From an uncultured archaeon (GTDB lineage Archaea; Nanobdellota; Nanobdellia; Woesearchaeales; CAIVOO01), in the NCBI GenBank assembly GCA_963845175.1, contig CAWJRI010000012.1, positions 13,928 through 77,927 on the forward strand: 64,000 nucleotides of DNA, read 5' to 3'. The first letter of the stretch is position 1, and every line of letters starts with the position of its first letter. Below, one piece after another: positions 6,768-60,437 of this stretch. The notes under the pieces are model-generated. The model was not told the DNA's origin, made no database searches, and worked only from the letters and a program-made list of their open reading frames with translations. Both the position numbers and the translations under genes were made by a program.

Positions 6768-6924
6768 TACCTACTGAGATTTTCAAAGACCGTACATTAA
6801 GTGTTCTCGAAGCTATTGTTGAATATCTCAAGGAGCAGAATGGGCTTTCTTATCACAAAATTGCTGAGATGCTAAACAGAAATGACAGGACAGTCTGGAC
6901 ATGCTATCATCGCGCAAAGCAGAA
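6591..6924 (+). repeat. Perfect 158-bp direct repeat (6591-6748 = 6767-6924), period 176 bp, duplicating the mini-HTH gene
   Basis: Read directly from the sequence. I found no mismatches across the 158 bp. Confidence 0.9.
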
Positions 6925-6943
6925 GAGAAAGAAAAATGAATGA
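6764..6943 (+). CDS. Mini HTH DNA-binding protein, copy 2 (59 aa), sigma-70 region 4 / LuxR / Tfx-N-like helix-turn-helix
   Basis: MIPTEIF...LSYHKIAEMLNRNDRTVWTCYHRAKQKRKKNE fits the pattern LS..EIAE.L.....TV.....RA..K typical of sigma70_r4/LuxR-type HTH. An ATG with a purine-rich stretch upstream is present. The track ORF start at 6725 is an out-of-frame read-through of copy 1. Confidence 0.65.
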   Translation: MIPTEIFKDRTLSVLEAIVEYLKEQNGLSYHKIAEMLNRNDRTVWTCYHRAKQKRKKNE

Positions 6944-15900: not shown

Positions 15901-18900
15901 ATTCGCAGGAATTAAAAGTTGGAGAGACTTGGAATGCGAGCGTTACGCCGAACGACGGCTACGCAGATGGGTTGACAGAATTCAGCAATTCGGTCACTAT
16001 TAAGTCGTCAACCCCTCCAAACATAACGAAGGTACAGCTGCATGACAAAAACAAAAAGCCGATAACAAACAAGACGCTCGTAAAAGCAGGGGAAAATATA
16101 ACAATAAATGTGACTGTGGCGCAGACAGAGGGAACAGTGAGCAGCGTCTGGATAAAAGTATGGAAAACTGTTGCAAACGCATTTACAACAATCTTTGAAG
16201 GAGTCCTAAATTTAATTTCTGGCAATCTGTGGCAGATAACAATAACAACAAATGGAAGCTGGACGCATGGCACGAATTACACCATCTACGCGAATGACAC
16301 AACTAATATAATAACGTCAAGAAATGAGAAAGTGTTTGTCAATAATCTGCCAACACAGGGTGTGCCGGCATTAAGTTCTCTCCTTAGAAGAAATGGAACA
16401 AATGAAAACCTAACTGTTTACAATACATCTACATATGACAGAGACAAAGATCCTGTTACAAACATAATCAACTGGTACAGGAATGGAACTTCGATTGCTA
16501 TGCTGAACATGCCGTTCAATTCGAACAATTCAGCCGGAGCTGGGAAGACAAAAGATTATTCTGGACATGGAAATAATGGAACTGTCGATGGAGCGACGTG
16601 GAGTGCAACAGCTGGATTTGACGGGAAGGGTGCATACAGCTTCACTGGAACAAATGGAGAATACATAGATGCAGGAAACGTGCCAGGAATAAATGGAGCA
16701 TCTGCATTGTCAGTTGAAGCCTGGGTTTATGTTAATGCATTTTCAGGCGATAATGGAATTGTTGCGAAAAGAGTTGCAGGCGTTGGAGAGGGCTTTCAGC
16801 TTATAAGTTATGATAGTGGAGGCAATCATTTCCATTGGTATCCAGAAACAACCGGAACAAATAATGTTGCTTCTTCAGTTAAAAATAAAGTTATCAATAC
16901 TTGGTATCATGTCGTTGGAACTTATGATGGTTCTTACGCAAGGATTTATGTTAATGGCGTTCTTGAGGATACACAAGTGGTTACGGGAACAATAATATCT
17001 TCAGCAGCGTCAATATGGATAGGAAATTATTATAGCACAGACCACCCTTTTGACGGCAAAATAGACAGCATAAGAATATACAATAGAGCGCTAAGTCCGG
17101 CGCAGATAAAGGCATTATACAACAACAGAACAGATTTAATTGTCGCTGAAGAAACAAAAAGCAAGGAAACATGGAAGGCGTGCATAACGCCGAACGACGG
17201 CTACGGAGACGGACCAACAAACTGCTCAAACAATCTCACAATAAATACAGCTCCAACGGTTGTACTGGCAGGCCCTGCCAATAACTCTGTTTGGAATATC
17301 CCGCCAACCTTCAGCTGGACTTATTCTGACAGCGACAATGATGTCCAGCAAGAATACCATATTATTATGGACAATGATAGTGACTTCTCCTCGCCGGAGA
17401 TAAATAGCACGGTAGTGAGCAGCAACAATTACACGCAGATAATGCCAAACAATCCAGGCAGTTATTACTGGAAAGTTCAGGTTTACGACGGCAAGGAATG
17501 GAGCAACTTCTCTGGCACAAGAAAGTTCACAACTACATGCCTAAGCCCATACAATGATATGTACATTAATTCAAACACAAAGCTGTGCAGCGGAACTTTC
17601 CATATTAATGACAGCTACCCTGATGGCGTCTTGATTTTAAATGCATCAGACATAATCTTAGACTGCAACAATGCAACTTTAATTGGAAATGGAGCGAACT
17701 ATGGGATTTATGTCAATCAAAAAAACAATATTACAATCAAGAACTGCATATTGAAAAATTATAATTATGGGATCTATTCTTGGTATTCGAACAATTCCAA
17801 AATAATAAATAATAAATTTTCCAACAGCACAATATATTTGTCTTCTTCACATTATTTCAACATAATAAGCAATTATATAAGCGCAAGTGGAAAACTCATA
17901 GACCTTGAGGGTTCTCGTCATACAAATATTTTCAACAATAAGATAAGCAAGAACCTATCTATTGATTTGTTTACCGGAAGTGGCAGCGGTGGACAGATTT
18001 ATGCATATCATTCACCCTACACTTATGCGCTAAATAACACATTCAAATATTCTGGAGGCATAAGGTTTTCCTGGAGCGACAACAGCAGCGCAGTCAACAA
18101 TACAGTTACTGATTTTAGCACAGCTTTTGCTGGCTTGATTGGCGTAGATGGTTCTAATGGGATTCTTTTCGAAGGAAACAATATAACAAACACAATGGGG
18201 CTGCTTGGTGCATTATATGCAGATGGTTCAAAAAATGTAATAATTAAAAGAAACAAAGTAGAGAACAACTTGCTCATGATGCTAACAATTACAAACTGCA
18301 ATAATATAACCGTCAGAGACAATAATCTAATGTCGAACAAAGACGCATGGTACATAAAGAACATATCTGCTATTTACGAAGAAATTACAAACCAGACTTT
18401 CCCGACATCCCTTGGAATTGACGGTTCGTCGTCATTCTTAATGACTTTGTTACAGCAGCTTTTCAGCCATGTTGAATCTGGCGCATTTAATATAAGTGGA
18501 GGAAATATAACGGGCGTTAATCTGGATGCTATGTCTTTATTGAAAATTCTCGGTCCGGTTTATTCGACAAATGTCAACAATATGACCTTAGTTAGCAACA
18601 ATCTAACCTTTGACAGCTTTAAAATTATGGCGAATCTGAGAGCTAACAAAGTTGATGTTAAGCGCGATGATGTTTCATTTGGAGCAGCTGTCGCGTACAT
18701 CGAAGGAAGTGATAATATTATCGAAAATAACTCTTTCATATTCAACAATAGCGGAGTTTCAATACACAGCTATGGAAATGTCACAGACATAGAAAACAAC
18801 AGATTAAACATAATTCTGGGTTCCTTCGCCCTGCAGGGAAATTCGAACAGAGTCTACCATAACAAGATGGCAATTGAAAAAAGCGGCATTGACCTGAATT

Positions 18901-21242
18901 CGCATACAAATACAACAATTGAAAATTCAACAGCTGTTAACGGCAAAGTATTCAGTATGAATATTTTAGGAAATAATAATGTTGCAAGCAATAATGATGT
19001 GCTTATCAAGGATTTGAATATAAATATAACTACCCATGGAAATAATGTTGACTTAAAAAAACTGTCAATCAATAATCTAACCATTGCGTTAGTTATTGTC
19101 GGAGGCTCGAACAACACCATCGAATCAAATAATGCAAAATATCATAATGCAAAATTATGGATCAGATCAGACGCAACAGATTATACAAAAATACATGACA
19201 CTGTTTTTGACTATAATTTTGTCTCATCCATTGGGCTAATGAATGCCAATAAAACCACAGTAAAAAACAATGTATTGACAATGGAAAATGCCGGCTTCGG
19301 CCTTGATATTATTCATGATGCATTTTATTCGACAAATATCACAAGGCTAATTTTCGGAGGAGTCGGCCTTATTAGCTCAAACAACAACACCATAGTCAAC
19401 AATTCGTTCATAGGCAACTCGCCTACTGCAAGCATCTCATTAACTCCCGCAAACGCAAAAAACAACACAATCAGCATAATTTATACGCTTCTGCTTGCAA
19501 TGCATAACTCCACTAATAATTATTTCGCAAACAACACAATTGTAAACAACACAATAAGTGAATCATTGGCTTCGCTGTTCAGCCCTTCGCTAGGGAACAA
19601 ACTAAGCATCCAGAAGCCAGGTATTTTGATTGACTCAGACAACAACAAAATATTTTCAAACAAAGTTTACAACAGCGGAAACTTTGATGCCTGGATAAAT
19701 GGAACAAACAACTCGTTCAGGCTTAACAGCTTTCTTTCAAATGGCATCGGCGGAAAGAAAAGCTTCTACGGTTCATACTCGCCGATGCACTACAATGGAG
19801 AGTATTTCAACGATACATATGGTTTTGTCGTCATAGGATCCGGCATTCAGGTTGTAACAGTAGACAACACATTAATAACACCAGCAAATGGCACCAACAA
19901 TTATGATCTTATGCTGTTCAACGACACAGTGGGTGCACTTGGAAATGGAACTGGAAAAATGTCAACCGCATTCTGTATAGGATGTTATGCTGGCGGCATA
20001 ATCAATTGCAGCGCTTTAGATGCTGCGCTTAGCTCTCCAGGTGCCTGCCGCTATTACAAACACAATGCGCTTGTAGGCCAGGGCGCTGGACAGGATTATT
20101 TGTTCAATGACATCTTCAACTCCACTTATTATGTGATACATAGCTACACTTCGCCACCTTCGATAAATTTGAAGGACTTCAGCAATAATTACTGCGTCGC
20201 TGGCGAAGGAAACTTCTATGAAGAATCGATACCTATGTCTAGAATCGGCTCGAATGACTGCGGTCTCAGCAATTTGACAAGCCCAACCGCAGGGAACTAC
20301 AACGACGGAACAGTAAAAATAAACTGGACAAGGCAGAGCGCCATGAGCACTGTAACCTATGACATCTTGCTTAACAGAACATGGACAGGAGTTGAAACGC
20401 TCCTTGCAAGAACTGTGGGGCTTAACTACCTCTGGAATACCACTGGCTACGAACCAGGCATTTACAGCATAAGGCTTGTTCCATGGATAGTCGGAAGCAG
20501 GCATAACGCGACAAATGCAAAAAGTGAAGAATTTGACCTAAACGGCACGATTCCTGCGACACCTTTGTTAATTTCGCCGGCAAACGATTCAACTCTGATC
20601 GACAGGACACCGACGATGAACTGGACAACTGTAGCAGGCAGCGGAATCACGTATCAGCTGCTGGTTGATAATGACACATCATTCGCTTCACCCGAAATAA
20701 ACGTCACAATCTCTGACACAAATTACACGCCGCTGACTGACATGAAGTTTGGAACGCACAACTGGAAAGTAAGGGCTTACAGAGGGGTTTTATATAGCAG
20801 TTTCAGCACGCAGAGGAATTTCACAATAATCACAAGCATCAGCTGCTCGCTGCCTGTGGCTGCTATTAATTTTGGAAATATAGATAAGGATGCAATTAAG
20901 AATACACAGAGCGAGAATCCTGCACCAATGATTGTCCGGAACAACGGAAACCTGAAACTCAACATTTCAATCAATTCAACTGACTTGTGGAAGTCACAAC
21001 CGAATCCGTCATCCTACTACCAGTTCAGGATCGACAAGAATGAAAGCAATGCATGGGATTCTGCGCTTAATGATTCATGGCACAATCTAGTCAAGACAAC
21101 TCCGCTGGTGGCAATCAGCGGACTGAAATACCATAGCGAAAGCAATTCAGCGGAAATCGAGCTTCAGATAACAGGACCGCCTGATGAAGGTGCAGGATCA
21201 AAGAAATCACAATTAAATGTGTGGTGCAGCCAAGATGAATAA
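6936..21242 (+). CDS. Giant (4,768 aa) N-terminally anchored surface protein: SHOCT-like cytoplasmic head, one TM, a sequon-rich stalk, ~10 LamG (concanavalin-A-like lectin) modules, Ig/FN3-like domains, a right-handed parallel beta-helix (PbH1) region and a C-terminal beta-sandwich
   Basis: A single uninterrupted ORF. Start taken at ATG 6936 (MNEDKLSELEKRFEE), because the first 18 aa of the track ORF are the HTH gene in another frame. TM is LAIGIAVLVVLIGLFFLV. LamG hallmarks (WTH.A.TY.G....YI[ND]G, GKIDNVRIYNR.LS..[EQ]IKALY) recur 10 times. Beta-helix repeats (N.TIKNC.L.N...GIY...S.NN.I.NN) span about 17540-19760. N-x-S/T sequons are abundant throughout. Confidence 0.9.
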   Translation: MNEDKLSELEKRFEECKLSLTEYDILKEKLIKKYDLAEPAKPPRIEKKKPRKLAIGIAVLVVLIGLFFLVKAPSFTGLFMQNVSNETNASINISVVLNESQINETLNVSIKNIGLENITENLTSNNSIKNISLENKIKKIIPKTALDKLNDKFNGINFEKDKNYLKIKHKKAEIRLKGANESEIKEVQVASEDEIKIKNKKASFGTPVVAINSINITNATIILDKEGPVNRIVYCPDWNFTGESCSAWVETNIPFTDLGDKISFTVTHFTAYAGSFVTNVASEWDAGLFTNTEKLGNVTILSGANTTGTYLSYVYRNGTTANDAVIVDWTKLAWVDDYNGTTHYQEAPVRSGMVGYWKLNNNTLDSSTKHNNMTSYEATPTTECVFGTGNCAYDFGGTSSYMTALNSADFDFGTGDFTVEVWVYPTGDPSSMEEIINKADSTSYAPFRILRVPTGGGLNYLMSNTAGSWVTYGGVWYGDSAYAPLNKWTHIVLTRNSGTAHFYVNGVQVSSMSANYQVYNDASEVAIGRLLHYGTPYWFQGKIDNVIIYKDKGLTQDEVKEEYARGAKELNITLAYRTTNLTQEVYNTSGLLGWWKLDENATDFSGNGNNGNIVGAAKIGGYFNNSYMFDLAYLKYIDVGTGLNAQTVMTLEAWVNPHSGYSHIGGIISKYQQGASPAGSYYMDIDDALHPNYAFYGLSPSCAGSVTSYTFPTDKWTYYAITYDGSKVITYINGNDIDERACSGTITQSSATVWIGNLNQPAYYYNYYGKIDSARVYNRSLSAEEIKYNYWHANFTGRNFGAYKAESPATINQNAKYFQYKAKLVSNASGYTPFLEKTEANFSFTSGNTAPTQGTPKLNSTHRTNKSNENLTVYNTSTYDADGDHVTNIINWYRNGNSITALNMPFNSNNSAGAGKTKDYSGNGNNGTINGATWSATSGFDGKGAYSFDGTNDYITIPHSSSINIISGQATYSMWLKRGRSGATEVLFDKNSVTPEPVYIRFSNNDRIYIQIFANDGSYHYFFASSTSTITDTDWHLLDVVFDYDTWTNSKIYIDGVAETLYSPTQFGTQIALTNTGILTIGSPNSGADYNFNGKIDNVRIYNRALSAAQIKALYNNRTDRIVSQELNAGEIWKASITPNDGYADGLTKFSNNVTILSSANTAPTQGTPILNSTHGTNRSNENLTVYNTSTYDADGDHVTNIINWYRNGNSITALNMPFNSNNSAGAGKTKDYSGNGNNGTINGATWSATSGFDGKGAYSFDGSNDITVSDSSSLKLGRGSFTISLWLKTGYHGYQLILGKYNPTYPYEDYEISMLDASTIRGCAIDCGTSACGFGSTRFCLPVTFSIADNQWHYITYTRSGSLETFYIDGVSLGTLTQGPLNTDSTGVLHIGSTSFSGKIDNIIIYNRSLTAQEIKALYNNRTDRIVSQELNAGDIWKAAVTPNDGYTDGLTKFSNNITILSAANTAPTQGTPKLNSTHGTNRSNENLTVYNVSTYDAEGDPVTNIINWYKNGNSIMALNMPFNSNNSAGAGKTKDYSGHGNNGTVNGATWISNGGFDGKGAYSFDGSDYVSCGNRAKTVLNDRLTLEAWIKPTVGATSPIVGKDSQSPGWESYAMSLSTAGEVVMQLTNGATYSYVKSSGVVSNGVWSHVAVTWQYTGAGGMTDVSIYINGVKQTNFLVAQTGEPSTLSAATGDLRIGMLANQAYYFTGKIDNVRIYNRSLSAEQIKALYQNRTDRIVSQELNAGDIWKAAVTPNDGYSDGLTKFSNNVTIRAPAVANTASTQGTPILNSTHGTNRSNENLTVYNVSTYDAEGDPVTNIINWYRNGTSIAVLNMPFNSNNSAGAGKTKDYSGLGNNGTVNGAKWIPNGGFDGKGTYSFDGSGTYIDLGTGLNVQTEMTFEAWVMPHYPFPQIGAILSKFNQYGSPPGSYYFTIDGNLHPNYYIYGPACSGQVNSYTFPTEQWTHYAVTYNGSKAITYINGQKVDEISCSGAIQHSASSVWIGNLNQPAYYYKYFGKIDSVRLYNTSLSAAQIKALYQNRTDRIVSQELNAGDIWKAAVTPNDGYSDGLTKFSNNVTIRAPAVANTAPTQGTPILNSTHGTNRSNENLTVYNVSTYDAEGDPVTNIINWYRNGTSIAVLNMPFNSNNSAGAGKTKDYSGLGNNGTVNGATWNATAGFDGKGAYSFNGNTNNYISWTYTKPQNSFTMVAWVKATTTHEIDSLSDPLGGVSGEKYVFWPNHEANSSAGAGLSVGTNGITVYEHGDWYLPAVAEYIGNLSTHWHHIAIVYANKQPKIYLDGALVSTGGISTRTIVYAPTQMGSGSYGGFPGLIEDVRIYNSSLSAVEIKALYNNRTDRIVSQELNVGDIWKASITPNDGYSDGLTKFSNNITIKANIPPTQGTPILNSSKRLNRSNENLTVYNVSTYDADSDPVTNIINWYRNGNSIMVLNMPFNSNNSAGAGKTKDYSGHGNNGTVSGATWISDGGFDGKGAYRFNDSKSDFINLGTGSSLTIADKITLEAWIYLPDLTGYHPIISKQGYSVLRYNYAFGTSGANIYLWLDAEGGGTAGEIITTDNPITTTGWHHIVASYDGSYEAIYLDGVDVKHQVVSITLANSGTHACYIGREDYNTGISGLFNGKIDSARIYHRALTAQQIKALYNNRTDKIVSQELSAGDVWKASITPNDGYSDGLTKFSNNVTILSSAAANTPPTQGTPILNSTHRTNKSNENLTVYNVSTYDADSDPVTNIINWYRNGNSIMVLNMPFNSNNSAGAGKTKDYSGHGNNGTVDGATWSATAGFDGKGAYMFSSSYIERAYDPDFTPGTKSWTVAAWIKVPLTEGPPSFIADWYRCGANPSCGSPDSALYSLSIINNNKVNWHVRDDNSNDVSLTSSSAVADNNWHYIVGTFDPTNDLTKLYIDGAEVATNNTPLTSLSDGGVSIPLEIGRRFVTGWGSPSGYLYGKIDDVRIYSRALTAAQIKALYNNRTDRIDSQELKVGETWNASVTPNDGYADGLTEFSNSVTIKSSTPPNITKVQLHDKNKKPITNKTLVKAGENITINVTVAQTEGTVSSVWIKVWKTVANAFTTIFEGVLNLISGNLWQITITTNGSWTHGTNYTIYANDTTNIITSRNEKVFVNNLPTQGVPALSSLLRRNGTNENLTVYNTSTYDRDKDPVTNIINWYRNGTSIAMLNMPFNSNNSAGAGKTKDYSGHGNNGTVDGATWSATAGFDGKGAYSFTGTNGEYIDAGNVPGINGASALSVEAWVYVNAFSGDNGIVAKRVAGVGEGFQLISYDSGGNHFHWYPETTGTNNVASSVKNKVINTWYHVVGTYDGSYARIYVNGVLEDTQVVTGTIISSAASIWIGNYYSTDHPFDGKIDSIRIYNRALSPAQIKALYNNRTDLIVAEETKSKETWKACITPNDGYGDGPTNCSNNLTINTAPTVVLAGPANNSVWNIPPTFSWTYSDSDNDVQQEYHIIMDNDSDFSSPEINSTVVSSNNYTQIMPNNPGSYYWKVQVYDGKEWSNFSGTRKFTTTCLSPYNDMYINSNTKLCSGTFHINDSYPDGVLILNASDIILDCNNATLIGNGANYGIYVNQKNNITIKNCILKNYNYGIYSWYSNNSKIINNKFSNSTIYLSSSHYFNIISNYISASGKLIDLEGSRHTNIFNNKISKNLSIDLFTGSGSGGQIYAYHSPYTYALNNTFKYSGGIRFSWSDNSSAVNNTVTDFSTAFAGLIGVDGSNGILFEGNNITNTMGLLGALYADGSKNVIIKRNKVENNLLMMLTITNCNNITVRDNNLMSNKDAWYIKNISAIYEEITNQTFPTSLGIDGSSSFLMTLLQQLFSHVESGAFNISGGNITGVNLDAMSLLKILGPVYSTNVNNMTLVSNNLTFDSFKIMANLRANKVDVKRDDVSFGAAVAYIEGSDNIIENNSFIFNNSGVSIHSYGNVTDIENNRLNIILGSFALQGNSNRVYHNKMAIEKSGIDLNSHTNTTIENSTAVNGKVFSMNILGNNNVASNNDVLIKDLNINITTHGNNVDLKKLSINNLTIALVIVGGSNNTIESNNAKYHNAKLWIRSDATDYTKIHDTVFDYNFVSSIGLMNANKTTVKNNVLTMENAGFGLDIIHDAFYSTNITRLIFGGVGLISSNNNTIVNNSFIGNSPTASISLTPANAKNNTISIIYTLLLAMHNSTNNYFANNTIVNNTISESLASLFSPSLGNKLSIQKPGILIDSDNNKIFSNKVYNSGNFDAWINGTNNSFRLNSFLSNGIGGKKSFYGSYSPMHYNGEYFNDTYGFVVIGSGIQVVTVDNTLITPANGTNNYDLMLFNDTVGALGNGTGKMSTAFCIGCYAGGIINCSALDAALSSPGACRYYKHNALVGQGAGQDYLFNDIFNSTYYVIHSYTSPPSINLKDFSNNYCVAGEGNFYEESIPMSRIGSNDCGLSNLTSPTAGNYNDGTVKINWTRQSAMSTVTYDILLNRTWTGVETLLARTVGLNYLWNTTGYEPGIYSIRLVPWIVGSRHNATNAKSEEFDLNGTIPATPLLISPANDSTLIDRTPTMNWTTVAGSGITYQLLVDNDTSFASPEINVTISDTNYTPLTDMKFGTHNWKVRAYRGVLYSSFSTQRNFTIITSISCSLPVAAINFGNIDKDAIKNTQSENPAPMIVRNNGNLKLNISINSTDLWKSQPNPSSYYQFRIDKNESNAWDSALNDSWHNLVKTTPLVAISGLKYHSESNSAEIELQITGPPDEGAGSKKSQLNVWCSQDE
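9476..17240 (+). repeat. Eight tandem ~0.9-1.3 kb coding modules (small beta-sandwich split by a LamG domain) with 100%-identical nucleotide blocks in the linkers and divergent LamG cores
   Basis: Module starts (N[TI][AP]PTQGTP) are near 9476, 10413, 11328, 12270, 13190, 14113, 15050 and 16340. Identical blocks: 9533-9786 = 10472-10725; 12114-12528 = 13032-13446 (1 mismatch); 14184-14359 = 15120-15295; 15213-15348 = 16503-16638. Confidence 0.9.
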
Positions 21243-37579: not shown

Positions 37580-37685
37580 GGGGCGGTAGCTCAGCCTGGG
37601 ACTTGTCAATGATTTAGCCAGACAAGCAGGAAAGAGCACACGGCTGAAGACCGTGGTGTCGGGGGTTCAAATCCCCCTCGCCCCA
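37580..37685 (+). tRNA. tRNA-Phe: tRNA-Phe (anticodon GAA) with a ~30-32 nt intron in the D-loop
   Basis: Acceptor GGGGCGG/TCGCCCC with discriminator A. D-stem GCTC...GAGC. Anticodon arm CACGG-CTGAAGA-CCGTG. T-arm GGGGG-TTCAAAT-CCCCC. The D-loop region is 41 nt rather than about 9-11 nt and contains the hairpin CTTGTC-N13-GACAAG. Confidence 0.75.
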
Positions 37686-49082: not shown

Positions 49083-49634
49083 ATGAAGATTTACAATGGA
49101 CTTGAAGAAAAAGAAGAAATAATGTTTGAAATTGAATGCGGCGCTGTCTTCATCTATCCGACTGACACAATTTATGGCATCGGATGCAATGCAACTGATT
49201 CTAAGGCAGTCAGAAGAATAAGAAAAATTAAGGTAAGTAAAAAGCCATTTTCAGTTATTGTGCCTGGAAAGAAATGGATTGAGAACAACTGCGTTATTGA
49301 AACGCAGCATCAAAAATACCTGAAAAAACTTCCTGGCAAATACACTTTAATTTTAAAATTAAAAAACAAGGATTCAATTGCGAGAGAGGTTTCAACAAAG
49401 ACAATTGGCGTGAGAATTCCAAAAAACGAATTCTCAAAGCTTGTTGAAGATCTTGGATTCCCTGTTGTGACAACAAGTGTGAATGAAACAGGAAAGAAAT
49501 TCCTGACAAACTTAAAAAATCTGGATAAAAAAATCGAAAGGCAGGTTGATTTTGCAGTTGATGCTGGCAAAATCAATGGAAAGCCATCCACAATCATTGA
49601 TTTGACGCAAAAAAAGCCAAGAATTCTGCGCTAG
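49083..49634 (+). CDS. tsaC: Threonylcarbamoyl-AMP synthase (YrdC/TsaC domain only)
   Basis: GAVFIYPTDTIYGIGCNATD...KPFSVIV...IGVRIP...TTSVN. First ATG is 49083. Confidence 0.85.
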   Translation: MKIYNGLEEKEEIMFEIECGAVFIYPTDTIYGIGCNATDSKAVRRIRKIKVSKKPFSVIVPGKKWIENNCVIETQHQKYLKKLPGKYTLILKLKNKDSIAREVSTKTIGVRIPKNEFSKLVEDLGFPVVTTSVNETGKKFLTNLKNLDKKIERQVDFAVDAGKINGKPSTIIDLTQKKPRILR

Positions 49635-50701
49635 AACTCAGTCAATCTCTTGTCAGCGCCGTATTTTATTATCGTCGTGTTTCCTTCTGAACCGCCTGTC
49701 ACTCTTTCCGACGCTATGAACTTGTTCTCTGCGAGCTTCGCTATCTTCCGCTGAAATGATTTGTAAGCCATTTTTCCGCCTTTTTCCTGGTAAATCTTGT
49801 AAAGCTCACCTATTTTCCTACCTGAGTTGTCCTTCACAATCTTAAGAATATCATTTGATTCCTCATCAAGCTCATCTTTTTTCTTTATTGAGAAATCGCT
49901 TAGCTTGCTTATTGCCTTTTTCGCGTGCTTCTCCTCTATTGTCTTTGACGCAGAGTCCTCTGCAGAAAGCCCCGCCTCCCTCAGAAGATAAAGCCCGATT
50001 CTTATGTCGCCAATCTCAAATGTCTTTTTTGAAATCATGTCAAGCGCCTTCTGCTCAAGCACATTCGGCGCAAATGCATAGCCTGCACGCTCCTTCAAAA
50101 TTCCCTTTGTCTCTATTTCATTATAAGGTTTGAACTCAAGAGTCTCAGGCACAAGCCTTGATTTTATCCGGTTATCAATTTCGTCAATGAAAGTCTTGTA
50201 ATTTGTTATCAGGAAAACGCTTTTCCTAAAAATTTCTTCAAGAATTGTGTAAATGAAGTCAAACTCCTCTGCCTTGTCTATCTCATCAAAGACAAAAACA
50301 GCTGATTTCTTGTTGATAATGTTCTTGATGACTTCAAAAAGCTCCTCTGTCCTCTTGTTCTGTGTAAACTTATAACCAATGATGCTGCAGATTTCAAGCA
50401 CAACCTTGTAGGTTGTGTTCTTCTGCCAGCAATTTATGTAAATCGGGATGACATCGTCTGTCTCTTCCTCAAGCTCTTTAATGACATGAAGGCAGGCAAC
50501 TGTCTTTCCAACTCCCGGAGGTCCATGGATTATAATATTTCTTCCATTCCTGTTTTCAAGCAAGGGCTTTATCCTACTTGCAATGTAATGCTGCTGACTC
50601 TCCCTATATGGAATTAGCTTTGGCACAAAAGTGTAGTCCAGCGCTAATTCATTCAAAAATAGCGATTCAGACCCCCCAAGCATATTCCTGAAAATACCCA
50701 T
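49631..50701 (-). CDS. cdc6: Orc1/Cdc6 replication initiator
   Basis: IIHGPPGVGKT (Walker A), VFVFDEIDK (Walker B), C-terminal winged helix. Confidence 0.9.
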   Translation of the reverse strand: MGIFRNMLGGSESLFLNELALDYTFVPKLIPYRESQQHYIASRIKPLLENRNGRNIIIHGPPGVGKTVACLHVIKELEEETDDVIPIYINCWQKNTTYKVVLEICSIIGYKFTQNKRTEELFEVIKNIINKKSAVFVFDEIDKAEEFDFIYTILEEIFRKSVFLITNYKTFIDEIDNRIKSRLVPETLEFKPYNEIETKGILKERAGYAFAPNVLEQKALDMISKKTFEIGDIRIGLYLLREAGLSAEDSASKTIEEKHAKKAISKLSDFSIKKKDELDEESNDILKIVKDNSGRKIGELYKIYQEKGGKMAYKSFQRKIAKLAENKFIASERVTGGSEGNTTIIKYGADKRLTEF

Positions 50702-50755
50702 AGTTATACATAAACATAGCTAATATTTATATATTTATATCCTATACTGAATGCC

Positions 50756-52684
50756 ATGCCGACCATAGAAAGTCTGATTAAGAAAGTAAAAGAGTATAGC
50801 CCTTCTGTAAATGACGCGCTGATAAGGAAGGCATATGAAGTTGCTGAAAAAGCTCACAGAAATGAGAGAAGGGCATCTGGCGAGCCGTTCATAGTCCACC
50901 CACTTTCTGTTGCAGAGTCGCTTGCCGAGTTCAAGATGGATGAAGCTTCAATCTGCGCAGCCCTGCTTCACGATGTTGTTGAGGACACGCCCGAATCAAT
51001 TGACAGGATCAAAAGCGAATTTGGCGATGAGATTGCAATGCTTGTTGACGGCGTCACAAAAATAACAACATTAAAGTCAAAGAGCAGGGAGGAGTACCAG
51101 ACAGAATCATTGAGAAAAATGCTTTTCGCAACTGCAAAGGATATCCGGGTGATAATAATAAAACTTCTAGACAAGCTTCACAACATGAAAACTCTCGAGT
51201 TCCTGCCAAAGGAAAAACAGCTGAGGATTTCAAAGGAAGTTATGGATGTTTACGCACCGATTGCATACAGACTTGGGATTGAAAAGATAAAAAATCAATT
51301 GGAAGATCTGGCATTCAAGTATCTCGAGCCTGAAAAATTCAATGAAATTGAGGAAAAGATAAAGAAAAACAAAAGAGCAAGAGAGGAGCAGATAGAAAAG
51401 CTAAGGGAGTTTCTTGAAGGCGCACTTAAGGAGCACAACATACCCTGCAAGGTTGTCGGGAGGCTGAAGAACATTTACTCAATCTACAAAAAGATGGTAA
51501 GGAAAGAGAGAACATTCGAGGAAATATTTGATGTTGTTGCATTAAGGGTTGTGACTGACACACCAGACAACTGCTACAAAGTAATCGGAATCATTCACAG
51601 CATGTGGAAGCCGATTCCAAGAAGGTTCAAGGACTTCATTGCCATACCTAAGGTTAACATGTACCAGTCATTACATGATGTTGTCATAGGCGAAGGCGGA
51701 ACAATAATTGAGATACAGGTTAGGACAGAGGAGATGGACAAGTTAGCAGAGGAAGGGATTGCTGCTCACTGGAAATATAAGGGGCTTGAAACAGACAAGA
51801 AGTTTGACAAGAAGCTGAGCTGGCTGAAGGAAATAATGGACTGGCAGCAGGACGCTTCTGCAAAAGAATTTGTTGAGTCATTGGAAATAGATTTTTTCAA
51901 GGATGAAATTTATGTTTTCACGCCAAAAGGCGATGTTATAGAGCTGCCAAAGGGCTCCACGCCGATTGATTTTGCTTACTCAATTCATTCAGGCATCGGC
52001 GACCACTGCATCGGCGCAAAGGTCAACGGCACATTCGTGAGCCTGAGGCATGAATTGAGGACAGGTGATGTTGTTGAGATAATGACTTCAAAAACGCAGA
52101 AGCCAAGCGTCGGCTGGATGAAGATTGTAAAGACAGCAAAGGCGCTGAGCAAAATCAAAAAATACCTTTATGAGGAAAAGAAGATTCCTGTAAGAGGTAC
52201 CAAGAAGATTGAGAGAAAGGAGCTGTCTGTTTCAGGAGGACAGGGAATACTGCTGATTGAAGGTGTCAAAAATCCAAAAATAAAGCTTGCAAAATGCTGC
52301 AATCCCCTGCCTGGACAGGATATTATCGGCTACGCTGATAAAATCAGAGGGGTTGTAATACACAAGGCAGACTGCGGTAATTCTAAGTTAAAAGACACGC
52401 AGAAGAGAAAGGTTAAGGTACACTGGAGAAGCGAATTCAGTGCATTTATCGAGCTGAAAGTGGAGGCGCTTGACAGGGTTGGCCTGCTTGCTGACATTCT
52501 TAACACAATCGCGGCAACAGGCACTAATCTGGAGACTGCAAACGCGAAAATGCTTGGCAAGGATATGTCAGAATGTACGTTCAAGATAAAAGTTGAAGAT
52601 CTGGACCACATAAGGGATTTAATAGAAAGAATAAAGAAATTAAAGGACATAAAAAAGATTTATATTGGAAAGCTTGGTGTTTAG
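50756..52684 (+). CDS. rel: Long RelA/SpoT homolog (bifunctional (p)ppGpp synthetase/hydrolase architecture: HD, synthetase, TGS, ACT)
   Basis: HD domain: H..ERRASGEPFIVHPLSVA...LLHDVVEDT. Synthetase domain: GRLKNIYSIYKKM...VVALRVV...YQSLHDVV...IEIQVRT. TGS domain: IYVFTPKGDVIELPKGSTPIDFAYSIHS. ACT domain: DRVGLLADILNTIA. Confidence 0.9.
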   Translation: MPTIESLIKKVKEYSPSVNDALIRKAYEVAEKAHRNERRASGEPFIVHPLSVAESLAEFKMDEASICAALLHDVVEDTPESIDRIKSEFGDEIAMLVDGVTKITTLKSKSREEYQTESLRKMLFATAKDIRVIIIKLLDKLHNMKTLEFLPKEKQLRISKEVMDVYAPIAYRLGIEKIKNQLEDLAFKYLEPEKFNEIEEKIKKNKRAREEQIEKLREFLEGALKEHNIPCKVVGRLKNIYSIYKKMVRKERTFEEIFDVVALRVVTDTPDNCYKVIGIIHSMWKPIPRRFKDFIAIPKVNMYQSLHDVVIGEGGTIIEIQVRTEEMDKLAEEGIAAHWKYKGLETDKKFDKKLSWLKEIMDWQQDASAKEFVESLEIDFFKDEIYVFTPKGDVIELPKGSTPIDFAYSIHSGIGDHCIGAKVNGTFVSLRHELRTGDVVEIMTSKTQKPSVGWMKIVKTAKALSKIKKYLYEEKKIPVRGTKKIERKELSVSGGQGILLIEGVKNPKIKLAKCCNPLPGQDIIGYADKIRGVVIHKADCGNSKLKDTQKRKVKVHWRSEFSAFIELKVEALDRVGLLADILNTIAATGTNLETANAKMLGKDMSECTFKIKVEDLDHIRDLIERIKKLKDIKKIYIGKLGV

Positions 52685-53016
52685 TGCCTTGCCTCAAATT
52701 CTGCAACGCATTTGTCAGAGCAGAACTTATGCATCTTCTCATTGATTCTTTTCTCAACTGGATTTTTTCCAAGCACTTTTTTGCAGTTGTCGCAAACTGC
52801 GTCTTCTCCTTCTTCGCCCTCTGAAAATCCTGCTTCCCAACTATCTATCTCATCATCTTCGACAAGCTTTTCCCTTCCCTCTTCTGAGTAAACATCCTCT
52901 TCTTTCTCGCCTGTCTCCATCTCCAATTCCAGCTCATCTGAGCTTTCCTCGTGCTCCTCTGGCTCGTCCTCGAAGCTATCTTTCTTTGACTCATCCTCTT
53001 CGTCGTCCCTTTTCAT
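52681..53016 (-). CDS. Highly acidic 111-aa protein with a C-terminal TRASH/MYM-like zinc ribbon
   Basis: CDNCKK...(21 aa)...CSDKC, preceded by about 70 aa rich in D/E. The ATG overlaps the serS stop. Confidence 0.6.
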   Translation of the reverse strand: MKRDDEEDESKKDSFEDEPEEHEESSDELELEMETGEKEEDVYSEEGREKLVEDDEIDSWEAGFSEGEEGEDAVCDNCKKVLGKNPVEKRINEKMHKFCSDKCVAEFEARH

Positions 53017-55631: not shown

Positions 55632-57383
55632 ATGCGCAGAACACACACTTGCGGTGAACTTACAAAAAATGAGATTGGAAGCAAGGTAATTCTAGATGGC
55701 TGGGTTCATGTAAGGCGTGACCATGGCGGACTGACTTTCATTGATTTGAGGGACAGGTACGGCTTTACGCAGGTTGTTTTTGACCCGAAGACATCAAAGC
55801 AGGCACACGAACTTGCCTATGGCTTGAGAAGAGAGGATGTTGTTGAAATTGAAGGTGTTGTCAGGCAGAGGCCGAAGGGGACAGAAAACCCAAAAATGAT
55901 AACAGGTGATGTTGAAGTTGCAGTTTCAAAGCTTGATATTCTTAACAAGTCAGAAACCCCTCCTTTGGAGGTTGATGACAGGATTGCTGCAAACGATGAT
56001 ATGAGATTAAAATTCCGTTATCTTGATTTGAGAAGGCCTGTAATGCAGAAGCATCTGCTGATAAGGCATAAGGCAATGCAGGCAACAAGGGAGTATCTCA
56101 ATTCAAAAGGATTTCTTGAAATAGAAACCCCATTATTGGTCAGGAACACGCCAGAGGGCGCCAGAGATTTTTTGGTTCCAAGCAGGATTAATCCTGGAAA
56201 AACATATTCTCTGCCACAGAGCCCCCAGCTTTACAAGCAATTGCTTATGGTCAGCGGCTGTGATAGATATTATCAGCTTGCGCGCTGCCTAAGAGATGAA
56301 GACTTGAGAGTTGACAGGCAGCTTGAATTCACGCAGATAGATTTGGAGATGAGCTTCATAAATGAATTTGACATTTACGAATTAACAGATGAATTAATGA
56401 AGCGCATTTTCAAGAAATCAATTGATGTTGATTTGAAAATTCCATTCCCAAGGATTCCCTACAAGGAAGCGATGGACAAATACGGCTGCGACAAGCCGGA
56501 CCTGAGGTTTGGAATGGAGCTGTTTGACGCGACAGCTATTCTTAAAAAATCTGATTTTGAGATTTTCAAGAAAGCGGAGATGATTAAGGGATTGTGCGCA
56601 AAGAAATGCTCATTCACAAGAAAAGAGCTTGACCATTTCATTAATCTCGTGAAGCCATATGGCGCAAAAGGCCTTGTCTCGATAAAAATAGAGAAAGATG
56701 AAATGGAGTCTTCTGTCACAAAATACATGAATGCAGGAATTCAGTCTGAGCTGAAGAAGAAATCAGGCGCTGGCGACGGCGATGTGATATTCTTGGTTGC
56801 TGACAAGCCTGCTGTTGTGAATGCCTCGCTCGCCGCTTTAAGAAATCATTTGGGAAAAGAATTGAAGCTTTACAATGAAAAGGAATTCAAATTCTGCTGG
56901 GTTGTTGACTATCCAATGTTCGGCTGGAGCGAGGAAGAGGAGAAATGGGAGCCGATGCATCACATCTTCACAATGCCGAAGCCAGACCACATTCCATTAT
57001 TGGACAAGGACCCTTCAAAAGTGCTTGGCCAGCTTTACGACCTTGTGCTCAACGGGATTGAGATTGCCTCCGGCTCGATAAGGATTCACAGGCCAGACAT
57101 ACAGGAAAAGGTTCTGAACATAATCGGCATTTCAAAAAAAGAGGCAAATGAGAAATTCGGATTCTTGATGGAGGCATTCAAATACGGCGCGCCTCCTCAC
57201 GGCGGAGTTGCGCCTGGATTTGATCGCTTAGTCGCGTTGATGTGCGGCTTCAATGATATCAGAGAGGTAATTGCATTCCCAAAAACAAAGGCAGGCGAAT
57301 GTCCGATGGACGGCTGCCCTTCTGATCCGGATCCAAATCTTCTTAAGGAATTGCACATGAAGTTTGATGTCGGAAAAAAATGA
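55632..57383 (+). CDS. aspS: Aspartate--tRNA ligase, bacterial type (with GAD insertion domain)
   Basis: RTHTCGEL, LPQSPQLYKQLLM, FTQIDLEMSF, GGVAPGFDRLVALM. It is 583 aa with a ~290-aa segment between motifs 2 and 3. Confidence 0.93.
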   Translation: MRRTHTCGELTKNEIGSKVILDGWVHVRRDHGGLTFIDLRDRYGFTQVVFDPKTSKQAHELAYGLRREDVVEIEGVVRQRPKGTENPKMITGDVEVAVSKLDILNKSETPPLEVDDRIAANDDMRLKFRYLDLRRPVMQKHLLIRHKAMQATREYLNSKGFLEIETPLLVRNTPEGARDFLVPSRINPGKTYSLPQSPQLYKQLLMVSGCDRYYQLARCLRDEDLRVDRQLEFTQIDLEMSFINEFDIYELTDELMKRIFKKSIDVDLKIPFPRIPYKEAMDKYGCDKPDLRFGMELFDATAILKKSDFEIFKKAEMIKGLCAKKCSFTRKELDHFINLVKPYGAKGLVSIKIEKDEMESSVTKYMNAGIQSELKKKSGAGDGDVIFLVADKPAVVNASLAALRNHLGKELKLYNEKEFKFCWVVDYPMFGWSEEEEKWEPMHHIFTMPKPDHIPLLDKDPSKVLGQLYDLVLNGIEIASGSIRIHRPDIQEKVLNIIGISKKEANEKFGFLMEAFKYGAPPHGGVAPGFDRLVALMCGFNDIREVIAFPKTKAGECPMDGCPSDPDPNLLKELHMKFDVGKK

Positions 57384-57664
57384 AAGTTGACGCTGAACTT
57401 ATAAAAAGAGTTGCTGCAAATGCTCGGCTTAACCTTAGTGGCAATGAAATAAGAGAGTTCATTCCGCAGTTCAAGGAAATAATTGATTATTTCTCAAAGC
57501 TCGATGAAGCTGATGTAAAAGACACAAAGCCGAGCTTCCAGCCTGTTGAAATAAAAAATGCAGTGAGGGCTGACAAGGCAGGCGCTTCATTGACGCAGGA
57601 AGAGGCATTGAGAAACGCCCAGCACAAGAAAGACGGATATTTTAAGGGGCCGAGAGCTGTATGA
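57380..57664 (+). CDS. gatC: Asp/Glu-tRNA amidotransferase subunit C
   Basis: 94 aa, with 4-nt overlaps to both aspS and gatA. IKRVAANARLNLSGNEI. Confidence 0.85.
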   Translation: MKVDAELIKRVAANARLNLSGNEIREFIPQFKEIIDYFSKLDEADVKDTKPSFQPVEIKNAVRADKAGASLTQEEALRNAQHKKDGYFKGPRAV

Positions 57665-59040
57665 AAACAAATGAATTTGTCAATGAAGTTAAAAAAGGGA
57701 ATATCTCAGTAGAAGAAAATACAGAAAATATCCTAAAGGAAGCTGAAAAAGTAAATTCAGAATACAAATATTTTAATGTCATCTCAAAAGAGCTTGCGCT
57801 GAAGCAGGCAATAGAGCTGGACAAGAGAATAAAATCCGGCAAGGCAAAAGGAAGATTGCTGGGAGTTCCTGTTTCTGTGAAGGACTGCATCTGCGTAAAA
57901 GATGTTGAGTCAAGGGCAGGCTCAAAGATACTTGAAGGCTACCTGCCAGTATTCAATGCAACTGCTGTCCAAAGAGCGATTGACGAAGGCGCAGTCATAA
58001 TTGGAAAGACTGCCCAGGATGAATTCGGATTTGGAAGTTTCTCAGCAAATGTCGGACTCGGCTTCAACAGGCCCCTGAATCCTTTTGATAAAACAAGGGC
58101 TTGCGGCGGAAGCTCTGGTGGAGCAGCTGGCTGGGCACAGAAGACAAAAAACACGCAAATCTCATTGGGCCAGTCAACAGGCGGCTCAATTGCCTGTCCT
58201 GCATCCTTCTGTGGCGTTGCCGGACTGACACCAACATACGGACTTGTTTCAAGATACGGGCTGATTGATTATGCCAATTCATTAGATAAGATAGGCTCGA
58301 TTGCAAAAACAATTGAAGACGCTGAGTTGATGCTTGACATAATTTCCGGGCATGATTTAAGGGATTCGACATCAGTGAAAGAGGGAATGCAGAAGCCTTC
58401 TGTCAAAAAGATTGCGATAATCAAAGACAGCTTCAAGGACATTGATGAAAATGTTAAGAAAGTTGTGCTGAAAAAGCTTGAAGGAATCGATTATGATGAA
58501 ATAACACTGCCATTGACAAACAAGTATGGGATTGCTGTTTATTACCTGCTTGCGACTTCAGAGGCTTCAACAAACCTTGCAAAATATTGCGGAATGAGAT
58601 ACGGCGCCCATGACAAGCTTGAAGGAAGCTTTAATGAGTATTTTTCAAAAGTAAGAAGCGATAATTTTGGAAAAGAAGCAAAGAGAAGGATAATATTGGG
58701 CACATTTGCAAGGATGTCGGGCTTCAGGGACGCCTATTACCTTAAGGCTGCAAAAATAAGGACAAAGATAATTGAAGAATACAAGAAAATTTTCAAGAAA
58801 TATGATGTAATTATCTCGCCGACAATGCCTATTCTTCCGCCAAAGTTTGATGAAATAGAGAAATTAACGCCTTTGCAGAACTACATGATGGACATAATGA
58901 CAGTAGGCCCAAATCTTGCAGGCCTGCCGCATCTTTCAATCAATGCAGGCTTTGCAAAAGAGCTGCCTGTCGGAATTATGCTTACAGCAGACCATCTGAA
59001 AGAGAAGAATTTAATTGAATTGGGAAAGAGGCTGGAATGA
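57661..59040 (+). CDS. gatA: Asp/Glu-tRNA amidotransferase subunit A
   Basis: Amidase signature GGSSGGAA...GGSIACPASFCGV. Confidence 0.95.
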   Translation: MKTNEFVNEVKKGNISVEENTENILKEAEKVNSEYKYFNVISKELALKQAIELDKRIKSGKAKGRLLGVPVSVKDCICVKDVESRAGSKILEGYLPVFNATAVQRAIDEGAVIIGKTAQDEFGFGSFSANVGLGFNRPLNPFDKTRACGGSSGGAAGWAQKTKNTQISLGQSTGGSIACPASFCGVAGLTPTYGLVSRYGLIDYANSLDKIGSIAKTIEDAELMLDIISGHDLRDSTSVKEGMQKPSVKKIAIIKDSFKDIDENVKKVVLKKLEGIDYDEITLPLTNKYGIAVYYLLATSEASTNLAKYCGMRYGAHDKLEGSFNEYFSKVRSDNFGKEAKRRIILGTFARMSGFRDAYYLKAAKIRTKIIEEYKKIFKKYDVIISPTMPILPPKFDEIEKLTPLQNYMMDIMTVGPNLAGLPHLSINAGFAKELPVGIMLTADHLKEKNLIELGKRLE

Positions 59041-60437
59041 AACCTGATGTAATGGTTGGAATGGAGGTTCATGTCGAGCTTGACACAGAGTCAAAGCTTT
59101 TCTGCGGCTGCTCCACAACAGCTGAAATTCCAAACAGCGCAACCTGTGAAGTTTGTCTTGGCCATCCTGGCTCAAAGCCTGTTGTAAACAAGAAGGCAAT
59201 TGACTTCGCGCTGAAGCTTGCGCTTGCATTGAACTGCAAAATCTCGCCTGAACTAATTTTCTCAAGAAAATCATATTTCTATCCAGACATGTCAAAAAAT
59301 TACCAGATAACGCAGTACGAGATTCCGCTTGGAAAAGAGGGAAGCATAAAGACAGGTGAGAAAGAAATTGGGATTATAAGAGTGCATCTTGAGGAAGATC
59401 CTGCTTCGCTGGTGCATAAGGGCAGCATGGAAACCTCTCCCTATGTTCTTATCGATTACAACAGAAGCGGAAGGCCGCTCTGCGAGATTGTAACAAAGCC
59501 TGACATAGGCAGCGCAGAAGAAGCGCGCGATTTCATGAAAAGGCTGATTACGATTCTGAGGTATTTGAAGATATTTGACATCAAAAAATGCATAATCAAG
59601 GCAGATGTAAATGTTTCAGTTGCAGAATCCGGCAACACAAAGGTTGAGATAAAAAATGTTTCCGGATTCAAGGAGATAGAAAATGCAGTCAAATATGAGG
59701 TTGAAAGGCAGAAAAAGGAAGTGAAGGAAGGAAAGAATATAAAACAGGAGACAAGGGGCTGGAACCCTGAAACAGGCACGACATTTTTTTTGAGAAGCAA
59801 GGAAACAGAAGAGGATTACGGCTATATTTTTGACCCCGACTTGGTTGTCATAGATATAACAAAAGAATCAATTGAAAAGGCAAAGAAGGACATGCCTGAG
59901 CTTCCTTCTGAAAAAGCGAAAAAATTTGTGAAGCTGCACAAAATAAAGCCAGAGGATGCTGAGATTCTGTCATCTGAAATAATCCTTGCTGACTTGTTTG
60001 AAAAGCTTGCAGCTGAGATAAATCCGCTTGTTGCAGCGAAATGGCTGAGAAGGGAGCTGCCAAGAATCGCACATTATAATAAAAAGGAGCTTGAAGAGCT
60101 TGACATAGATGAAAAGCACATCATCGAGCTTCTGGCAATGGTCGAAAAAGGCGAGATAACAGAGGCAGTTGCAAAGAAAATCCTGGAAAAGATGCTTATC
60201 AAGACATTCTCGCCAAAAGATTATGTGAAAAGGGAGAAATTAAGCATGGTTGCAGGCGCTTCTGAGCTTAAGAAGCTTTGCGAGGAAGCTGTGAAAGAGA
60301 ATCCAAATGTTGTTGAGGATTACAAGAAGGGAAAGCTTGAGGCTTTGAATTTCTTGGTCGGGCAGGTCATGAGAAAAACAAAAGGAACTTCCAATCCTGT
60401 GGAATTAAAAGAAATAATTAAAAAAATAATAAATTAA
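59037..60437 (+). CDS. gatB: Asp/Glu-tRNA amidotransferase subunit B
   Basis: VGMEVHVEL, RVHLEEDP, C-terminal YqeY-like tail (LNFLVGQVMRKTKG). Confidence 0.95.
   Translation: MKPDVMVGMEVHVELDTESKLFCGCSTTAEIPNSATCEVCLGHPGSKPVVNKKAIDFALKLALALNCKISPELIFSRKSYFYPDMSKNYQITQYEIPLGKEGSIKTGEKEIGIIRVHLEEDPASLVHKGSMETSPYVLIDYNRSGRPLCEIVTKPDIGSAEEARDFMKRLITILRYLKIFDIKKCIIKADVNVSVAESGNTKVEIKNVSGFKEIENAVKYEVERQKKEVKEGKNIKQETRGWNPETGTTFFLRSKETEEDYGYIFDPDLVVIDITKESIEKAKKDMPELPSEKAKKFVKLHKIKPEDAEILSSEIILADLFEKLAAEINPLVAAKWLRRELPRIAHYNKKELEELDIDEKHIIELLAMVEKGEITEAVAKKILEKMLIKTFSPKDYVKREKLSMVAGASELKKLCEEAVKENPNVVEDYKKGKLEALNFLVGQVMRKTKGTSNPVELKEIIKKIIN

Follow-up and report, generated by a model that had tools for sequence, protein, structure and literature searches.

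The window analyzed here is a stretch of 64,000 nt from an uncultured archaeon of the order Woesearchaeales (assembly GCA_963845175.1, contig CAWJRI010000012.1, positions 13,928–77,927). The gene at window positions 50756–52684 (plus strand) begins with ATG and encodes a protein of 642 aa. Its open reading frame (ORF), Pfam and NCBIfam matches, AlphaFold2 model and Foldseek comparisons identify it as a long RelA/SpoT homologue (RSH) of the Rel type. Very probably it is a bifunctional enzyme, i.e., one that would both make and degrade guanosine tetra- and pentaphosphate, (p)ppGpp. Its status as a native and domesticated archaeal gene is well supported. The presence of RSH genes in this lineage was already published in 2021 (PMC8407392), and as a discovery the gene therefore adds little. 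What sets it apart is a short linker between two of its regulatory domains, which is a clade-wide departure from bacterial Rel and appears to be the only structural one in this protein.

Domains, catalytic residues and the shortened linker

The whole protein scores 732.4 bits with the NCBIfam model TIGR00691 (spoT_relA), for which the curated cut-off is 499.2. Its Pfam domains (HD_4, RelA_SpoT, TGS and ACT_4) are each far above their own cut-offs. The RSH does not reach the cut-offs of the gammaproteobacterial equivalog models for SpoT (NF008303, 582 vs 947) and RelA (NF008124, 436 vs 728). Several close homologues from metagenome-assembled genomes (MAGs) are named by NCBI as 'bifunctional (p)ppGpp synthetase/guanosine-3',5'-bis(diphosphate) 3'-pyrophosphohydrolase'.

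Residue columns of the RSH were compared with those of 208 homologues in an alignment, which includes 65 sequences of an archaeal clade and 144 from a bacterial side as defined by the trees described below. The hydrolase (HD) domain is at residues 26–175 (positions 50831–51280; HD_4, PF13328, E 2e-49), and this and all other domains are on the plus strand. Residues H48, H72, D73, E76, D77, D139 and N143 are all kept (pattern HHDEDDN), and the same columns are conserved in 140–144 of the 144 bacterial-side sequences. The synthetase domain is at residues 235–343 (positions 51458–51784; RelA_SpoT, PF04607, E 4e-41). Its motifs consist of GRLKNIYSIYKK at 235–246, which includes G235-R236-x-K238, then D259, RFKD at 290–293, YQSLH at 303–307 (Y303/H307) and EIQVRT at 319–324 (E319-x-Q321-x-R323). 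R236, K238, D259, D293, Y303, H307, E319, Q321 and R323 are invariant in 65/65 archaeal-clade sequences. The sequence-only reading of this DNA had described a hydrolase domain with an intact HD..ED motif together with a synthetase domain; the residue check bears this out, with every catalytic residue of both domains present.

The RFKD motif at 290–293 is the basic RxKD form and not the ExDD of RelA. From what is known of RelSeq and RelA, the RxKD form combined with an intact HD domain is the mark of a bifunctional Rel and not of RelA. The G-loop residues Y303/H307 and the RxKD motif are those of Rel enzymes that use GDP and GTP.

Three further domains follow the catalytic half. The TGS domain is at residues 385–444 (positions 51908–52087; PF02824, E 9e-26). 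Its H411 aligns opposite residue 420 of 6yxa_A (H420 of Bacillus subtilis Rel), is invariant in alignment A1, and is the counterpart of H432 in Escherichia coli RelA. The TGS histidine of RelA sits beside C74 of the A/R-tRNA, near the CCA end (PMC5291266). A zinc-finger or ribosome-intersubunit (RIS) domain of the type CC..H..C is at residues 514–545 (positions 52295–52390); C514, C515, H536 and C540 are invariant in 65/65 archaeal-clade sequences and are present in 142–143 of the 144 bacterial-side sequences. The C-terminal ACT/RRM domain is at residues 566–636 (positions 52451–52663; ACT_4, PF13291, E 2e-14), and is modeled as beta-alpha-beta-beta-alpha-beta with a predicted local distance difference test (pLDDT) score around 90.

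The linker between the TGS domain and the zinc finger (residues 445–513, positions 52088–52294) is short, as seen in the alignment columns, in the absent match to PF19296 and in the structure model. Measured by alignment-column count, the linker has a median of 67 residues (57–81) in the 65 archaeal-clade sequences vs 140 (75–159) on the bacterial side. PF19296, the Pfam model of the helical/ribosome-intersubunit region, has no match in the RSH, but is present in the bacterial homologues that were matched. Alignment to the 797-aa GTP pyrophosphokinase RelA chain 8fr8_I gives the same picture, in that the query advances from residue 477 to 500 while the chain advances from 553 to 652, i.e., approximately 75 residues are skipped. 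In the model the linker consists of one long helix (461–475), a short helix (452–455) and a disordered loop (478–495). In E. coli RelA this linker is made of five helices and is wrapped round the tRNA acceptor arm (PMC5291266). The sequence-only reading had also assigned the protein a complete long-RSH layout. This stands as far as the HD, synthetase, TGS and ACT domains are concerned, but not for the helical linker.

The AlphaFold2 model was built on 70 homologues and has a mean pLDDT of 84.1. The best Foldseek matches include ribosome-bound RelA (5IQR), Rel of B. subtilis (6YXA), SpoT (7QPR) and the catalytic domains of Staphylococcus aureus Rel (7OIW). The catalytic half superposes on 7OIW with a target TM-score of 0.95 and a root mean square deviation of 2.0 A, and it superposes on RelSeq as well. 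The full-length model matches 5IQR with a Foldseek E of 7e-41 and the full-length SpoT 7QPR with an E of 8e-37.

Archaeal clade and native status of the gene

A survey of RSHs in 2011 lists no long RSH in archaea (PMC3153485). In the portion of the 2021 mSystems paper considered here, RelA/SpoT is reported for Diapherotrites (69.0% of genomes), Woesearchaeota (41.7%), Pacearchaeota (21.3%) and Nanoarchaeota (19.0%), and the proteins of these DPANN archaea are predicted to come from Bacteria (PMC8407392). Among the matches listed in a literature search, this is the only paper that joins SpoT or ppGpp with Woesearchaeota, Pacearchaeota or Nanoarchaeota. The counts obtained here agree with the frequencies given in that portion. 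Among 61 genomes sampled in this order, 29 pass the TIGR00691 cut-off. They comprise all seven genomes of the same family (the genome of the window included) and carriers from 22 of 54 further families in the sample. Some of these carriers are single-contig, 100%-complete genomes. In a class-wide sample there is a strong TIGR00691 match in 52 of 301 genomes (51 of the 204 that are high-quality), from several orders. Fifty-three archaeal RSH proteins were recovered, and all but one or two are 616–677 aa in length.

Phylogenetic analysis places these proteins together. A FastTree analysis used 209 sequences, of which 53 are from archaeal genomes, 150 are the best representatives in a library of 1.8 billion proteins and six are named Firmicutes Rel proteins. 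All archaeal-genome sequences and twelve representatives of 627–648 aa are on one side of a branch with local support of 99, and the 144 longer sequences are opposite. An IQ-TREE analysis (LG+C20+F+G4) was made with 86 rows, after removal of columns filled in fewer than 60% of the rows. In the resulting tree a single change between archaeal and bacterial labels suffices, with an SH-aLRT value of 91. The RSH groups with the archaeal-genome proteins, with which it shares the short linker, and apart from the longer bacterial-type forms. The bacterial-side sequences nearest to the clade (P0149, P0152, P0170, P0222 and P0230) are 670–702 aa and have a linker of intermediate length. The sequence-only reading took archaeal occurrences to be sporadic and unusual. 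This premise fails, given the order and class counts, the coherent archaeal clade and the 2021 publication; with the relatives screened and the RSH tree built, the protein falls in a clade already common in its lineage.

The gene is found in an archaeal context. The window lies on a 98-kb contig (C12) of a MAG that totals 687 kb in 20 contigs and is about 65% complete with 1.2% contamination. An archaeal 16S rRNA gene is present on another contig, with a score of 1398 bits to the archaeal small subunit rRNA model. Close homologues have the source names 'Nanoarchaeota archaeon' and 'Candidatus Nanoarchaeia archaeon', which together with the genome size assign the organism to the DPANN archaea of the Woesearchaeota/Nanoarchaeia type. 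The genes of C12 on either side of the RSH are archaeal or eukaryote-type. To the left of the RSH on C12 are genes for an RFC-like clamp-loader subunit (RFC large-subunit-like AAA+), a T2SSE-type secretion ATPase, RtcB and Orc1. To the right is translin, and past the window are HerA, TruD, an Obg-like GTPase of the YGR210 type and the archaea-specific pair GatD/GatE. The GC content is flat along the window. Ranked against 562 crudely called genes of the genome, the RSH falls at the 80th percentile for synonymous-codon fit and at the 67th for GC content at third codon positions (GC3), and its tetranucleotide distance from the genome average is below that of 96% of 2-kb windows. An independently assembled MAG of the same genus, CAIMOB01 ('uncultured archaeon ... 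AlinenSediments_bin-2373'), has an RSH that is 97% identical and shares the gene order Sua5, orc1, RSH, TRASH, SerRS, translin, AspRS. In a search for related loci with the RSH protein alone, this same-genus MAG was the only match. Comparison of the two copies gives a dN/dS of 0.031 (dS 0.54, dN 0.017), i.e., the RSH is under strong purifying selection. The host-like codon usage, GC3 and tetranucleotide composition, the TATA motif described below, the archaeal flanks, the synteny and the dN/dS value all uphold the earlier view of a domesticated gene.

Two accounts that would deny the gene a long archaeal history can be weighed against these data. One is bacterial contamination, in which an error of assembly or binning would have brought the RSH and the sequence on its right side from a bacterium into an archaeal MAG. 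Long RSHs are a typically bacterial feature (the TIGR00691 cut-off is passed in 10 of 10 bacterial and 0 of 4 archaeal control genomes), a bacterial-type AspRS with a GAD domain is encoded 3 kb downstream, and the MAG is incomplete. However, the flat GC and host-typical composition, the TATA box at -30, and GatD/GatE, HerA and translin to the right on the same contig all speak against it, and the order from Sua5 to AspRS is repeated in the independent MAG, and the stretch orc1-RSH-SerRS recurs in a closed genome (1.3 Mb) from a different family (L039). Since archaeal genes are on both sides, the composition is that of the host and the same order is found in an independent assembly, contamination and chimerism, including a contig that turns bacterial from near 50.7 kb, are excluded for practical purposes and their probability is negligible. 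The other account supposes that this one lineage received the gene recently from a bacterium, in a sporadic horizontal transfer; the sequence-only reading had likewise spoken of horizontal transfer for archaeal RSHs in general. The best-scoring named non-archaeal matches are Firmicutes Rel proteins, with 54–55% identity over the N-terminal three quarters, and a bacterial origin is predicted in the cited part of PMC8407392. Against this, the closest relatives are archaeal (44–97% identity) and have the same short architecture. The copies from the family of the window genome (f1) form a starred sub-clade in both the FastTree and IQ-TREE trees and have conserved synteny at only 55–65% identity. 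No compositional trace of transfer is present, and the archaeal clade is set apart from all longer forms. A recent transfer is thus very improbable. The origin of the archaeal clade is most simply explained by one old acquisition from Bacteria; the long-RSH clade of these DPANN archaea (Nanoarchaeia or Woesearchaeota-type) would then have been shaped by inheritance within families and by many losses.

The 54 bp between the starts of the RSH and the divergent orc1/cdc6 gene (positions 50702–50755) represent a putative divergent promoter region. The motif TTTATA starts at 50726, which is -30 from the RSH ATG, and ATATAA on the minus strand starts at 50732, which is -31 from the orc1 ATG. There is no Shine-Dalgarno-like motif before the RSH ATG. 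The same pattern is present genome-wide: among 386 genes with at least 45 nt of non-coding sequence upstream, TATA-like motifs show a sharp peak at -31 to -27 relative to the start codons (81 motif starts at -30 and 80 at -29, with a background of about 10), and a Shine-Dalgarno-like motif is found in only 50 of the 386. A TATA peak near -30 of the start codon with few Shine-Dalgarno motifs is the signature of leaderless archaeal transcripts, and most transcripts of this genome look leaderless. The RSH and orc1 would thus share one compact AT-rich element, and the RSH, a gene of bacterial derivation, appears to be expressed with host-type signals from a leaderless promoter of the archaeal kind. 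Between the window and the same-genus MAG (L014), the 45 nt that precede the RSH start, the TATA motif among them, are nearly identical.

Proposed function and alternatives

In the proposed mechanism, the synthetase domain would produce (p)ppGpp by moving pyrophosphate from ATP onto GDP or GTP and the HD domain would hydrolyze (p)ppGpp back, with the balance between synthesis and hydrolysis set by the TGS, zinc-finger and ACT domains. Intact catalytic centers in a domesticated gene make (p)ppGpp metabolism plausible in this archaeon; the enzymatic activity, its trigger and a role of (p)ppGpp as a signal in this organism are inferred. Retention of the TGS histidine, the zinc finger and the ACT domain suggests sensing of uncharged tRNA on the ribosome. 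These conserved domains probably read some translation-linked cue, and the chance that this amounts to true sensing on the ribosome is judged to be somewhat below even. The geometry of RSH action must differ from that in bacteria, and regulation that is independent of the ribosome is a serious alternative.

The most far-reaching proposal is that this clade of RSHs runs an archaeal stringent response. The protein, with its half-length linker, would dock on the archaeal ribosome via the TGS, zinc-finger and ACT domains and read uncharged tRNA, and (p)ppGpp would control the growth of host-dependent DPANN archaea. As a whole this is a tentative proposal, possible but with the balance of probability tilted against it. 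To our knowledge Archaea have not been found to contain (p)ppGpp; if the proposal is true, it would be a real second messenger there.

An active RSH may also serve without a bacterial-style stringent response, e.g., under ribosome-independent, SpoT-like control by a ligand or partner, in the metabolism of (pp)pApp or other nucleotides, or in handling alarmones or nucleotides derived from the host. The differences between archaeal and bacterial ribosomes favor such a role. It is favored also by the reduction of the five-helix linker that wraps the A/R-tRNA in E. coli RelA (PMC5291266) to essentially one long helix and a disordered loop, and by the large host dependence of DPANN archaea (PMC8204110). 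Several sister lineages have lost the hydrolase residues and kept the synthetase, i.e., the balance of activities has shifted repeatedly in the clade. However, H411, whose RelA counterpart is near the tRNA CCA end, the C/C/H/C residues of the zinc finger and the ACT domain are strictly conserved, which is difficult to reconcile with an abandonment of ribosome or tRNA sensing, and Y303/H307 and RxKD are typical of Rel enzymes that use GDP or GTP. Such a role is considered unlikely overall.

Some points weigh against the preferred reading of a bifunctional Rel that descends from one old bacterial acquisition and answers to translation. With its helical linker cut down, the protein should not be assumed to be activated as in bacteria. 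Both trees are unrooted. The bacterial side was assigned mostly by length and PF19296, and seven of its members are named (six Firmicutes and one Deltaproteobacteria cluster). The same-order sequences fall into two sub-clusters of the archaeal clade in the FastTree analysis, so some transfer among DPANN lineages is possible. Within the 65% of the genome that is assembled, no other member of the RSH family was found, and the missing part may hold a further one.

The RSH is a clean candidate for a first biochemical test of alarmone metabolism in Archaea because it has intact active sites, strong purifying selection, host-type expression signals and no companion of its family found in the sequence assembled for this genome. 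The loss, across the clade, of most of the linker that wraps the tRNA poses the question of whether a bacterial stringent factor was re-fitted to the archaeal ribosome or ribosome sensing was abandoned.

Gene neighborhood, variants and comparison with known systems

The divergent orc1/cdc6 gene (positions 49631–50701, minus strand) has Pfam matches to Cdc6_lid and AAA and scores 181.2 bits with TIGR02928, just under the cut-off of 181.3. It adjoins the RSH exactly as the sequence-only reading had placed it, with 54 bp between the divergent starts. The head-to-head arrangement is kept in four other genomes of family f1 (G001, G003, G004 and G005) with RSH identities of 60–97%, and orc1 is one small gene further from the RSH in G022 (family f17) and G034 (f29). 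The link to orc1 is a family-level trait. As a trait of the whole clade it was rejected, since it is confined to families f1, f17 and f29. The neighborhood comparison gave no evidence of a functional tie between the orc1-RSH pairing and replication. In the same-genus MAG (L014:3125–4000) an extra ORF of 265 aa (877 bp) is inserted between orc1 and the RSH.

In other lineages the RSH is divergent from an upstream gene for Kae1/TsaD (six loci) or for an E1 enzyme of the ThiF type (ten loci). Within the same order, Kae1/TsaD is the RSH partner in group A. The E1-like enzyme of the ThiF family has about 316 aa and is divergent from the RSH in other orders of the class (L016, L017, L019, L022, L025–L028, L030 and L032). 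In family f74 (L027, L028 and L030, position -2) the ThiF-family E1 gene is followed by a conserved 80-aa ORF that has no Pfam match.

Downstream of the RSH is a convergent gene for a small acidic TRASH/zf-FCS protein of 111 aa (positions 52681–53016, minus strand), which shares 4 nt with the RSH at the stop codon of the latter and has serS as the next gene. A homologue is beside the RSH in the same-genus MAG (L014). In G022 (L039, f17) it is on the other side of the RSH, at position -1, between orc1 and the RSH. This placement indicates that the TRASH gene goes along with the RSH/orc1 locus and is not tied strictly to serS.

RSH-type genes vary across the clade. In several DPANN families the HD/ED residues of the hydrolase are lost, e.g., HHGNKDN or HHG--VN is present in place of HHDEDDN, and the synthetase residues are invariant. 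The loci concerned are L027–L031 (f74), L043/L044 (f59), L034 (f86), L032 (f106), L045/L046 (f67) and L042 (f29), and from their motifs these long RSHs look synthetase-only. ExDD-type motifs with an intact HD domain are found in families f94, f101 and f102. A RelA-like coupling of ExDD with a dead hydrolase was considered and rejected, since ExDD is mostly found with an intact HD domain and a dead HD domain mostly with RxKD. Relatives that lack a long RSH often encode shorter proteins, about 200 aa in length, whose match to TIGR00691 is limited to its HD part, as in small alarmone hydrolases (G011:C51:5333–5815, G048:C1:52972–53463, G043:C19:11572–12069, G052:C3:63090–63542, G040:C2:71994–72362 and G037:C3:21502–21867). 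Synthetase-only fragments are present in some genomes (G036:C58, G020:C12 and G002:C107).

Other features of the window and contig include a single ORF of 4786 aa (14 kb, positions 6882–21242, plus strand). The bacterial-type AspRS with its GAD domain (aspS_bact, 717 bits) is within positions 55632–60437. The archaeal GatD/GatE pair is on the same contig (G000:C12:94143–97264, equivalent to L056:16216–19337), and the genome seems to hold both tRNA-amidation systems. No tRNA is reported in the window by ARAGORN or by Rfam at the gathering threshold, including positions 37580–37685.

Bacterial bifunctional Rel proteins, as represented by B. subtilis Rel (6YXA, 6HTQ and 8ACU), S. aureus Rel (7OIW) and RelSeq (1VJ7), carry HD, SYNTH, TGS, zinc-finger and ACT domains in the order seen in the RSH. 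B. subtilis Rel 6YXA is 50% identical to the RSH over the 479 columns of the Foldseek alignment. Like bacterial Rel, the archaeal RSH keeps all catalytic residues, the basic RxKD motif and the TGS histidine. Unlike bacterial Rel, its linker is approximately 70 residues shorter (67 vs 140) with PF19296 undetected, and it is found in an archaeal host, with an archaeal ribosome and a putative TATA promoter of the leaderless type. E. coli RelA (5IQR and 5KPV) and Acinetobacter baumannii SpoT (7QPR) belong to the same superfamily and are matched over the full-length fold, but unlike E. coli RelA the RSH retains the hydrolase residues and has RxKD in place of ExDD. The DPANN RelA/SpoT proteins of PMC8407392 represent the same gene in the same lineage. 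To the presence and origin described in the portion of that paper considered here, the present analysis adds the short linker, the intact sites, the orc1 synteny, the promoter and the selection data.

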